Shown one piece after another: positions 18,001 to 21,000 of a DNA stretch of 64,000 bases (the stretch's first letter is position 1; each line of letters starts with the position of its first letter). Source of the DNA: an uncultured Candidatus Saccharibacteria bacterium (GTDB taxonomy: Bacteria; Patescibacteriota; Saccharimonadia; Saccharimonadales; Saccharimonadaceae); NCBI GenBank assembly GCA_946404545.1, contig CAMJDZ010000003.1, positions 5,808 to 69,807 on the forward strand, written 5' to 3'. The position numbers were made by a program.

Positions 18001-21000
18001 GCCACGATAAATATCCGAATAGCGTGCCCACACTTTGATGCGCCCTGGTTTCAAATCAAATACCGGAATCAAAAACATCCACAAACTCAACAAAAAGTTT
18101 ATGGCCATCCATACAAACAAGCTGCGATCCTTCTTTGCGATCGACTTAAAATCTTCGGCTAATTCTTTCATAGCTTTCCTTTATTTTACCATAAACCGCA
18201 TCAAAAAACCGCCCCGTAATTGGGGCGGTGTTCTATTTTTTGTTTTTCTTATTTAGTGCACGCTCCACCAGGATAATTACAATTAAACCTGCAAGTGAAG
18301 CGCCAAAAATAACAAATAGCCAAGGCGAAAAGTCGTCGTTCGTCTTTGGCACGACCGGAGTTGGGTCGACAGGGGTTGGGGTTGGAGTCGGGGTCGGTTC
18401 AGGGCCAGGGCCAGGGCCCGGTGGCGTTGGGTCGTCAGACGCCTCGACGACATAGAAAGTCCATTCGGTCTTCGACATCAAGCCGCTGATACTCGTATCG
18501 TCGCTGCTCGACGAGTCGAAGTTCACATTGTTACCGTAATTCGCGTCGAGATAAGTATCAACTTTCATCGTTACCCGCTCGCCTGCGCCAAAACGCTTGA
18601 TGAGCACCGCGTCAGTCAAATTCACGCCCTGATCACGGTAATCCAAGCCTTTCGCCTTACCATCATAGAACTGCGTGCCGTCAATCGAAATTTCCATCTC
18701 GATATACTCGAGCAAATCATCCGCCTTAACCGAGTTGTCGTCGGACGAAATCTTGAAATAAATATCATAAGCCTTTGATGTGCCATTTTCGACCGCGAGA
18801 TAATCCGTGTAGCTGCTACCCGGAGTCATGTTCTCGTGAATCATAAATCGATCATCAAAGAGCGCGCCATCATAATAGATTTTGCCGTCGGCCTCATAAA
18901 TATAGACCTTATTTTCGGCCGCAAAAACAGGAGTAGCGATGAAGAGGCTAGCAAATAGTGCTAATAAAACCTTCCTCATCGCTTCCTCCTTATTTAATTG
19001 CTAATTAGTGTCAGTTTCAGAAATAGTTGGAGCAGTCGTCCAAGCGTTCTGATACTGGTCAGCCTGAACCGTCTCGATGGTAATCGTCAAAGTGTAAGTT
19101 GCTTTGCCGAGACCCTTGATGCCGGTGGTGCAAGTCTTGGTGACGGTGCCCTCACCAACCGTACCTTCCGTTTCACAGTTAGTGTCGGTGGTGACGTTGG
19201 AGTTGAGCGTGACGCTCGTCAAGAAGGACTCGTCAGTCGTAGCGTTTGGTGCAAGCCTCTTGTAGTAGTAAAGATGCTCGTCATCCGTGTTGGAAGAGCT
19301 GAGCCACATCGTATCTTTGTGCTCACCATAGTTCAAAGTGACGAGATCGCGAGACCCATTCGTATAATACTGGGTTCCGTCAATCGTCAGAGGGAAAGTA
19401 ACCTCGGTACCATTATCAAGCGTCCACTTCTCTGCCGTAGAAACACGGACAGCGACTGGAATCGTACCTTCGTTCAAAGTCACAACCGACTTTGGCACAG
19501 TCTGGCCTGGGAGCCAGTTATCTGGGCTGGAGAAGGTCTCCGTCGACTTGGTTTTATAAGTTGCTGTTGTGAAGACGTTATCGAAGGTCGCTTCGCTTGT
19601 GAAGTAAGCAATCGTACCGCCGATCAAACCGAGCACTGCGAGCGCGCCAAGTGCAATGATTGGTTTCTTATTCTTCATTATTATTCCTTTCTTTTTCGCT
19701 TACGCTTATTTTATCATTTTTAATATTACTAAGCAAGAATTCAAGTAGTAGGATGCCAATTAAAATTGCAAACACCCACATATGCGTATTAACAAACTGC
19801 ACGCCAAAGCCAAGCACCGGAATCGCCACCCCGCCAATCTTACCAAGCACAGCGCTGTATTCGACCGGACGGCCATCTTCGACGTTGTTGTTATCGCCCT
19901 GCGTAATAAACGCGCCATTCTCAATTCTCTTCACACGGTGCGTTACCATCGTATCGCCCATCTGATAAGTCACAATGTCACTTTCATGAATCTCTTCCTT
20001 CGGGACCTGTTTGTAATAAATAATCGTACCAACCTCATAGGTTGGGCGCATCGATCCGGATAATACCACCACCGGCTTGCTGCCAAAAATCATCGGTGCG
20101 CAAACAATAGCGTACACGCCAATAATCACATAACAAAAATAGCTCAAGATATGAACGATTTTTCTTAGAACGTCCACGTCGCAGTCCCGTCAGCCACCAC
20201 TACAGTTTTACCCCAAAGCTCCAACGCTGCATCAGCAGTTGGTTGAATCGCTTCAAAACGGAAAGTCAAATCATAATCGTATGCGAGATAACTATTGTTC
20301 GTAAGCGCGATGCTAGAAAGCACCTGAACTGCCGTATCCGGTTCCAAAGTTTTCTTGTAGTAATACCAACCGTCGCCGCCGTCAACGAAATCAGTCGTGA
20401 AATCATCCGTCCAAGTTTTTGTCACGACATTAACGCCGTTCACCGTGTTGCTAACTGAACCGTTTTTCCAAGATTCGCTATAGCCAATCCTCAAAAGTAC
20501 TGGCATGTTACTGTCTGCGCGGTTTTTGAAGGAGATCTCCCTCTTGCCAAAACCTTCATCCGAATCCTCGATAATATCCACACTGGCTCCGCCGAGAGTT
20601 AACTCGCCGGAAATGTCCGAATTATTATGGCTCAAAGCGTACACAACAAGACCGGCCGCACCCACAATAACAAGGGCCAACACCGGCAAAAGAATCACTT
20701 TTTTGCTCTTCTTCTCTTTTTTGAGTCTTTTCATCGATGACCTTTTCTATAGTATAGCTTATGTTTATTTTATAGTCAAAAATATCGCAACAAAAAATCC
20801 CTTTCGGGATTCCTGTCTAAAATGGAGCCGTTGACTGGGATCGAACCAGCGACCTGCTCGTTACGAATGAGCTGCTCTACCAGCTGAGCTACAACGGCAA
20901 TATAGGTATTATATCACATTCTTCTTGCTTTTCGTGGCATATTCCGTTATAATAAATCGAGTAAGGGCTCGTAGCTCAGTTGGTTAGAGCGCCTCCCTGT

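Follow-up and report, generated by a model that had tools for sequence, protein, structure and literature searches.

A putative SipW-dependent BsaA-type fibre operon with a sortase-type tether protein in a gut Saccharibacterium

We analysed a 64,000-nucleotide stretch of DNA from an uncultured Candidatus Saccharibacteria bacterium (contig CAMJDZ010000003.1, positions 5,808 to 69,807; this whole 64-kb stretch is called the window, and all coordinates refer to it). The window contains four tightly spaced minus-strand open reading frames, S2, sipW, S1 and a fourth gene whose 248-residue product is termed P248, and all four frames are intact. We consider it about 60% probable that this operon encodes a SipW-dependent surface fibre of the TasA/BsaA type that would carry its own cell-wall tether, namely P248. 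The proposal draws on the family assignment of S1 and sipW, on a sortase-type sorting signal at the C-terminus of P248, and on the occurrence of P248-type domains beside or fused to BsaA modules in other bacteria. The fastening of TasA/BsaA-type fibres to cells is an unsettled matter; the known factors TapA, CapP and BsaB-LPXTG are lineage-specific and partly understood. The P248-domain family, widespread with about 270 clusters, would be a candidate for a general solution. Its members, which nearly always bear a sortase signal, are the product of the gene directly downstream of a BsaA-type gene or have the domain joined to the end of a BsaA module. What appears to be new here is the earlier unrecognised anchor domain family, the conserved four-gene cassette and a further kind of fibre in this phylum, beyond type IV and Pam pili.

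The four-gene cassette and its conservation

S2 (20165-20734, minus strand, 189 residues) has no C-terminal head and overlaps sipW by 13 nt. The sipW gene (19668-20177, minus strand, 169 residues) has a GTG start codon, the position of which agrees with the N-termini of its homologues, and it overlaps by 11 nt with S1 (19001-19678, minus strand), whose 225 residues consist of the module only. A 21-nt gap separates S1 from the P248 gene (18233-18979, minus strand), and an AAGGAGG ribosome-binding site can be read from the sequence within it (18985-18991, minus strand). Upstream of S2 lies a sigma-70-like promoter, TTGACT-17-TATACT (20751-20779, minus strand), with 10 of 12 matches, and the fourth gene is followed by an intrinsic terminator (18208-18229, minus strand) formed by a hairpin of 8-9 pairs, 7 of them G-C, and a T run. 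The four-gene layout, the overlaps, the gap, the promoter and the terminator were all found where a preliminary description of this DNA had placed them. In the 5 kb scanned, the promoter was the joint best site together with one other, and the number of promoter-like sites (10 versus 7.4 ± 2.7 expected) was not above chance. Among 13 related Saccharibacteria loci, 11 have a −35/−10 pair that lies 45-56 nt 5′ of the S2 orthologue, and nearly all have a G+C-rich hairpin with a T run 3′ of the fourth gene, the stem sequences being different. Because the promoter and terminator signals recur in the related loci, the four genes can be regarded as a real transcription unit, and the comparison indicates that they behave as a single conserved one. 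A tRNA-Thr(CGT) gene directly upstream (20823-20898, minus strand) marks the 5′ boundary of the unit, and the 3′ end of the same tRNA was also found upstream of S2 in the related loci L007 and L014.

S1 matched the BsaA family model TIGR04090 over residues 4-208 (E = 5.1e-35, 121.4 bits, cut-off 60) and the model of the SipW-type signal, TIGR04088 (E = 6.7e-8, 32.5 bits, cut-off 19), as well as, weakly, PF12389 (23.1 bits, cut-off 22.5). It is 40-47% identical to homologues that are labelled Clostridia or Bacilli or come from low-GC sequences, and a Saccharibacteria orthologue carries the NCBI name ‘BsaA family SipW-dependent biofilm matrix protein’. These matches identify S1 as a true BsaA-family protein of the TasA superfamily with a SipW-type signal. 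Residues N34, E47 and K63 of S1 are conserved across homologues and are only candidates for counterparts of N35/E56/K74, the triad of the intermolecular isopeptide in BsaA. The sipW product matched the archaeal/endoplasmic reticulum (ER)-type signal peptidase I model TIGR02228 (E = 1.6e-26, 93.1 bits, cut-off 51.85) and, under its cut-off of 190, the Bacillus SipW equivalog NF046067 (E = 2.2e-24, 86 bits). Its translation contains the motifs SGSM, THRV and GDNN (conserved Ser, His and GDNN), and sipW is accordingly annotated as a dedicated signal peptidase I of the archaeal/ER type, as predicted from these models.

S2 itself gave no direct match in the Pfam and NCBIfam family scans. Its signal is a variant of the SipW type (..VYA/LSHN..), and the S2 family aligned with the S1 family in hhalign with a probability of 96.9% (E = 1.8e-10, 118 columns). 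The S2 orthologues L019_198, L020_202 and L022_199 matched TIGR04090 with E-values of 2e-13 to 5e-11, under the cut-off; the orthologue from L020 also matched TIGR04088 (24.6 bits), and the Firmicute-like S2 orthologues matched the S2 profile with E-values of 1e-45 to 1e-50. Because of the alignment with the S1 family and the orthologue matches, S2 is classified here as a BsaA-type protein and not as a TapA-like accessory; it is a divergent, remote paralogue of S1 as judged by these profiles. In the NCBIfam scan (E up to 0.1; the library was assumed to include TIGR04087), the TapA model was matched by neither S2 nor P248, and membership of either protein in the TapA family (YqxM; TIGR04087) was rejected. 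The operon had initially been described as tapA-sipW-tasA-like. The gene order and the SipW/TasA-superfamily components agree with that description; the closest relative is the Clostridium perfringens bsa locus instead, and the gene in the position of tapA is of the BsaA type. Comparison of the S1, S2 and P248 profiles with PDB sequences yielded nothing useful.

In 13 related loci, which come from Saccharibacteria of the ruminant and horse gut, S2, sipW, S1 and P248 are collinear with the window. The same four-gene cassette was found, again collinear, in the low-GC (27-29%) metagenome contigs L019, L020 and L022, where all the products are orthologous at 33-45% identity. The S1 homologue of L020 is labelled by NCBI as Bacilli bacterium, and this contig also encodes a sortase and a von Willebrand factor A (VWA) protein; one low-GC cassette contig is linked to a Bacilli metagenome-assembled genome (MAG). 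On this comparison, the cassette is not peculiar to Saccharibacteria. Since the diversity of the P248 family lies mostly outside this group, the cassette has probably been acquired from, or exchanged with, gut Firmicutes by horizontal transfer; its G+C content, which equals the genome background, would have drifted there since.

P248, its sorting signal and its domain family

P248 begins with an ordinary Sec signal (residues 1-20, VFA/AE), which is followed by a predicted beta-sandwich domain (residues 21-182), then a linker rich in Pro and Thr and, at the C-terminus, a sorting signal of the sortase type. The ectodomain of about 160 residues is encoded at 18434-18919 (minus strand). The sorting motif V-P-K-T-N (residues 210-214; 18338-18352, minus strand) is a variant of NP(K/R)TN or PxTG, and a hydrophobic helix (residues 220-238) and the basic tail ERALNKKNKK (together 18236-18322, minus strand) complete the three-part layout of a sortase signal, VPKTNDD - FSPWLFVIFGASLAGLIVIILV - ERALNKKNKK. 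The VFA/AE site, the PT-rich linker, PKTNDD, the helix and the KKNKK tail had been listed previously and are all present in the translation; that PKTND, helix and basic tail together constitute a sortase-type sorting signal had been missed. Residues 172-238 weakly matched the sortase-dependent surface protein model NF053819, and no family model in Pfam or NCBIfam matched the ectodomain. A first homology search with P248 returned 64 relatives, and all the named ones were Candidatus Saccharibacteria. In the family alignment, P211, T213, D215 and F217 are invariant, and the relatives show NP(K/R)T(N/G/H/E)D-F followed by the helix and the basic tail, the motif being kept in all orthologues. The VPKTND of P248 thus stands against NP(K/R)TND in its relatives and PxTG(D) in the wider family, and the Asn before the Pro of the motif is replaced by Val only in the sub-clade of the window protein. 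The classic motif of class B sortases is NPxTN, exemplified by NPQTN/NPKTG in IsdC of Staphylococcus aureus and Bacillus anthracis, and the clade consensus NP(K/R)TN corresponds to it. P248 is therefore best described, on its predicted features, as a tethered surface protein that takes the ordinary Sec/signal peptidase I route and bears a class-B-style sorting signal.

The ectodomain profile was searched against 1.84 billion representative proteins, which yielded a family of 272 clusters at E-values up to 1e-3 and 151 clusters at E-values up to 1e-10. A strict filter that demanded the motif, the helix and the basic tail was passed by 106 of 150 representatives of the family; 69 carry PxTG. Type A members resemble P248 and have a Sec signal, the domain, xPxTG(D), the helix and the basic tail in about 200-240 residues. 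Type B members combine a SipW-type signal and a BsaA module (TIGR04090) with a P248-type domain and a sorting signal, and type C members consist of the domain, a helix and then a weak sortase-like domain. In P0190, a type of fusion that is essentially S1 joined to P248, an S1-like module directly precedes a P248-like domain and NPDTGD. The same order was observed in P0252, P0257, P0293 (which adds Cna_B domains) and others, and the locus L021 is a multi-TasA operon ending in a type B fusion. Because gene fusion and conserved adjacency are both found, in two phyla, the P248-type domain is likely to be a physical partner of BsaA modules, and the comparative evidence that it works together with them is strong. 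The preliminary description had proposed P248 to be a tethered anchor analogous to TapA. Its tethering and its link to BsaA modules, by operon position and by fusions, stand up, and the anchor idea is well supported by comparison and largely borne out by it; the analogy with TapA found no counterpart in the TapA model.

A word-indexed search using the domain profile mostly brought back the Saccharibacteria proteins already found, for which ‘hypothetical protein’ is the only name, and the cluster look-up of the family gave no informative names. The P248-type domain merits a family model of its own. Among the members with a helix, P0194, P0206, P0214, P0330 and L022:6001-7017 have no PxTG, and the helix is followed by a partly degenerate sortase-like domain. 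P0214 and P0206 retain the context of the catalytic Cys, which P0194 and P0330 have lost, and the membrane topology of this helix/sortase-like-domain fusion is puzzling.

Near-identical strains differ in the products of the cassette. When L007 was compared with the window at 18233-22104, the flanking genes were 99-100% identical (SurA 100%, ornithine cyclodeaminase 98.8%, sipW 99.4%), and the identities were 94% for S2, 87% for S1 and only 75% for P248. L006, from the same MAG, has a 96% identical P248 allele. This pattern suggests that the exposed proteins diverge fast or exchange alleles between near-identical strains.

The fold of P248 was modelled with AlphaFold2 (AF2). The first model, of the full-length protein, was mediocre, with a predicted local distance difference test (pLDDT) score of 65.7 and a helix at residues 219-246. 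The ectodomain model, built from a deeper alignment of 49 sequences, reached a pLDDT of 88.4 and a predicted template modelling (pTM) score of 0.83, and comprised nine strands and two short helices. At its mature N-terminus, the P248 family has a conserved beta-hairpin (..NK(L/V)Y..E....YY), which was modelled with a pLDDT of about 90. In Foldseek searches of the PDB, two structures matched the whole ectodomain best: B. subtilis TasA (5of1_B; TMq 0.45, TMt 0.39, E = 2.8e-3) and 7ueg_A, an archaeal bundling pilin that is TasA-like (TMq 0.44, TMt 0.40). Both structures were among the top matches for the earlier, independent P248 model as well. A remote TasA-like jelly-roll is our best guess for the modelled domain and is not established. 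The idea of P248 as a hidden BsaA paralogue was rejected after hhalign against the S1 and S2 families, which gave probabilities of 0.2-1.7% and aligned only an F..N..PG....V.N motif.

Proposed assembly, alternative readings and neighbouring genes

By analogy with the family, cleavage by SipW would free the N-terminal strand of S1, which would insert into the next subunit to build the fibre, and S2 would act as a minor subunit, as cap, nucleator or adaptor. Such donor-strand exchange has been demonstrated for TasA and is supported for BsaA by modelling and mutagenesis (PMC11580942). Strand complementation is the probable way in which the beta-sandwich of P248 would bind the S1/S2 fibre at the end nearest the cell, and P248 could serve as both base and terminator of the fibre, like PapH in P pili or the basal pilin in sortase pili. 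A sortase would cut the P248 signal after the Thr and link the protein to peptidoglycan; if sortase did not act, the C-terminal helix would keep P248 in the membrane. Six large paralogues encoded elsewhere in the window could share the same SipW and the same anchor. A more elaborate version, which we put forward tentatively and hold to be less probable than the operon-level reading, is a hybrid fibre that would unite the two main ways of assembly known for fibres of Gram-positive-type cells: a donor-strand TasA/BsaA shaft, and a base made of the new domain that a class B sortase would attach covalently to peptidoglycan. One anchor and one SipW would then serve six interchangeable adhesin-headed subunits of this epibiotic Saccharibacterium, as parts of an organelle for host attachment that differs from both type IV and Pam pili.

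Of the 14 related loci that extend far enough, 11 have a class-B-like sortase gene four genes downstream of the cassette, after a gene for a DUF7601 protein, and these sortases matched the class B model TIGR03064 with E-values of about 1e-38, under the cut-off. The sorting motifs of P248 and of the DUF7601 protein stay conserved in loci without an adjacent sortase, and the P, T, D and F of the P248 motif are invariant even in genomes of this kind.

Several observations weigh against a sortase-tethered fibre. No sortase was detected in the 64-kb window, the usual position included, by blastp and tblastn with a related sortase; the window covers only part of the genome, so the gene may lie elsewhere. 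The VPKTN of the window protein departs from the clade consensus NPxTN, which makes two departures from the class B/PxTG forms, and some family members (type C) have the helix without a PxTG motif. P248 showed no significant similarity to the S1 and S2 families in profile comparisons, and the matches to the TasA fold have template modelling (TM) scores below 0.5 and root-mean-square deviations of 7-8 Å, generic beta-sandwiches giving similar E-values. Neither SrtB nor BsaB is required for the BsaA polymers of C. perfringens strain 13, which sodium dodecyl sulphate (SDS) releases (PMC7395162, PMC11580942), and the equivalent system of B. cereus works without sortase (PMC13082335). Finally, the sortase frame contains an in-frame TGA in four related lineages.

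The TGA-bearing sortase genes are located at L001:12392, L002:12993 (= L003:7039), L018:14944 and L016:12020. Each is full-length in one frame, with a single TGA exactly where the orthologues have Trp (FEW or VAWL), and the remaining genes at these loci are normal under code 11. Either TGG-to-TGA inactivation has occurred repeatedly, or UGA read-through or Trp decoding is limited to the sortase gene.

The best surviving alternative, which we nevertheless consider unlikely, is that P248 is mainly a surface-tethered chaperone or nucleator, which would cap the groove or the donor strand of exported S1 and S2 and pass the subunits to the fibre. The conserved N-terminal beta-hairpin of the P248 family could serve as the complementing strand, and the type C relatives that keep the helix without PxTG imply that simple membrane tethering may suffice. 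Accessory factors of known systems are chaperones (CapP, PMC13082335; the Pam chaperones with C-terminal helices), and BsaA polymerises without BsaB. On the other hand, the sorting motif is strongly conserved over about 270 clusters, which argues for a covalent attachment to the wall that a transient chaperone would not need, and the fused proteins join the domain permanently to a BsaA module, an arrangement that suits a structural base more than a chaperone that is recycled. The anchor and chaperone roles are not mutually exclusive and, on present data, are not separable.

Downstream of the cassette, the locus continues into genes that the preliminary description had missed, namely a pilin-like gene and, in relatives, the class-B-like sortase gene. 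The gene order in the related loci is the cassette, sometimes inserted genes, a 121-residue membrane protein, a 540-residue protein and the DUF7601 protein (about 360 residues). In the window, the DUF7601 pilin-like protein (14972-16030, minus strand, 352 residues) matched PF24547 (E = 4.9e-11) and, weakly, the T-antigen/Spy0128 backbone pilin of Streptococcus pyogenes (E = 0.004-0.009). It ends in MVNTG, a helix and RK, and the (V/I)(N/K)TG motif as well as the position of the gene are conserved in relatives; by these features it is a predicted second sortase-type substrate at the locus. As the pilin-like DUF7601 gene is followed by a class-B-like sortase gene in relatives, a sortase-pilus-like module adjoins the SipW/BsaA operon. 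This proximity of the Saccharibacteria cassette to a T-antigen-like pilin gene and a sortase would also suit a reading in which P248 has no part in a BsaA-type fibre and is an independent sortase-anchored protein or adhesin, or a basal or minor subunit of a DUF7601 pilus, co-transcribed for co-regulation only; the lack of significant similarity between P248 and S1 or S2 is consistent with it. We judge this reading to be quite improbable. The cassette with P248 as its fourth gene also occurs in L019 and L022, where no nearby DUF7601 match was recorded, the partner of the domain in several independent fusions is a BsaA module, not a DUF7601 or SpaA pilin, and the terminator, and in several loci inserted genes, part the cassette from the pilin module.

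It is very improbable that the operon is a decaying import from Firmicutes that lost its sortase, let the motif degrade to VPKTN and no longer builds an anchored structure: the sortase is missing from its usual position and from the rest of the window, the Asn-to-Val change is confined to this sub-clade and TGA interrupts the sortase frames of the four lineages, but the four frames are intact, the overlaps, promoter and terminator are conserved, the four motif residues are invariant even where no sortase is adjacent, the G+C content is that of the genome, eight proteins with BsaA-type modules are retained within the 64-kb window of a reduced genome, and the sortase may be elsewhere, only part of the genome having been seen.

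The genes between the cassette and the DUF7601 gene encode the membrane protein of 121 residues (17806-18171, minus strand), whose stop abuts the start of the next gene, and a multi-pass membrane glycosyltransferase-like protein of 540 residues (16183-17805, minus strand). Both genes occupy this place in all the related Saccharibacteria loci that reach the position. They apparently form a unit separate from the cassette; a conserved TGGTAAAAT-type −10 element follows the terminator, and in several loci the two units are parted by inserted genes. The 540-residue protein contains DSD, ED and QLRRW (QxxRW-like) motifs typical of processive family-2 glycosyltransferases; it had no match among PDB sequences, and its match to GT2 in Pfam was marginal. 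It is the most conserved product of the locus, with 79-86% identity in the more distant related loci versus about 50% for the fibre genes, and is 97% identical in the near-identical L006. On the other side of the cassette, a 337-residue open reading frame of the ornithine cyclodeaminase family, read from 22104, overlaps a tRNA-Gly(CCC) gene (22053-22127), and its true start is probably the internal ATG at 22038 (MKLISF...).

Six large proteins of 579-701 residues with an S1-type N-terminal module are encoded at 8301-10187, 22219-24324, 42234-43973, 45718-47715, 47700-49691 and 57240-59132, in agreement with the preliminary description. They carry large adhesin-like heads at their C-termini, the head of the 701-residue protein consisting of PARCEL/DUF285 repeats, and none has a sorting signal. 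Three of the six share an end motif, ..(I/M)(R/S)PVVSLK(A/P)GT.., and the genes at 45718-47715 and 47700-49691 are arranged in tandem with a 16-nt overlap. A type IV pilus cluster lies near the right end of the window (59228-63298, minus strand; L023); it includes a T2SSE/MshEN ATPase of 584 residues (59228-60982), and a PilM-like gene is located just past 63298. Because of this cluster, the genome can be said to have type IV pilus machinery as well. Saccharibacteria live attached to host bacteria, and their surface contacts have so far been tied only to type IV and Pam pili. A third, Firmicutes-derived appendage system with six adhesin-headed paralogues would be a plausible device for binding hosts or substrates.

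Comparison with known fibre systems

The closest relative of the cassette is the sipW-bsaA-bsaB system of C. perfringens, not tapA-sipW-tasA. The bsa locus is made up of srtB and sipW-bsaA-bsaB(LPXTG)-bsaB′-bsaC (PMC7395162, PMC11580942), and in most C. perfringens strains srtB adjoins sipW-bsaA-bsaB(LPXTG) (PMC11580942). More widely, BsaA/TasA genes often neighbour LPxTG, SpaA and sortase genes, and the anchoring of BsaA polymers through BsaB-LPXTG and SrtB was termed ‘speculative’ by its authors (PMC11580942). The two systems are alike in that SipW stands beside BsaA-family subunits, several BsaA-type paralogues are present, a sortase signal is found on a downstream product, and there is a class B sortase gene in the neighbourhood, in our case in the relatives. 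They differ in that here a BsaA-type gene, S2, precedes sipW, and in that the putative anchor stands alone, has a Sec signal and consists of a domain that lacks a family model and does not significantly resemble BsaA modules. The operon also contains no VWA protein (BsaC) and no two-component system, and its host is a Saccharibacterium.

The B. subtilis tapA-sipW-tasA operon shares with the cassette the order of a small secreted protein, sipW and a TasA-superfamily subunit, the dedicated SipW, and a minor protein proposed to link the fibre to the cell. TapA acts as a chaperone or nucleator for TasA. In contrast to the B. subtilis operon, S2 and P248 do not match the TapA model and S2 is itself BsaA-like; TapA has no sortase signal, and the fourth gene has no counterpart in B. 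subtilis. The sipW-tasA-capP-calY locus of B. cereus (PMC13082335) likewise brings together two TasA-type subunits, SipW and a wall-associated accessory protein. It differs from the cassette in being sortase-independent, and CapP is chaperone-like by its description, acting as a chaperone for CalY/TasA (PMC13082335).

Pam pili were described in Ca. Mycosynbacter amalyticus, a member of the Saccharibacteria (bioRxiv 10.64898/2026.03.03.709456). Like the fibre proposed here, they are non-type-IV donor-strand-exchange fibres of this phylum, and a PamR base and chaperones held by a C-terminal helix have been proposed for them, the membrane-anchored PamC and PamD being the proposed chaperones (bioRxiv 10.64898/2026.03.03.709456). 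The Pam pilins, unlike S1 and S2, have two Ig-like domains and carry Sec signals; the pam locus neighbours the genes for ATP synthase, and the family is reported to be exclusive to bacteria of the candidate phyla radiation (CPR), whereas the present cassette is shared with Firmicutes. That paper never mentions SipW or TasA and mentions sortase only once, as general background (bioRxiv 10.64898/2026.03.03.709456), and the top-ranked papers for TasA combined with Saccharibacteria or CPR terms do not mention TasA. As an identity for the cassette, Pam pili were set aside on architecture, signal type and gene context as described.

A further parallel is offered by PapH of chaperone-usher P pili and by the basal pilins of the SpaB type, in which a specialised cell-proximal subunit stops growth and fixes the fibre, as is proposed here for P248. 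Basal pilins of sortase pili are linked to peptidoglycan by sortase. The present system would differ from both in that the shaft would form by TasA-type donor-strand exchange and the sortase signal is on the base only; the likeness proposed here is one of logic.

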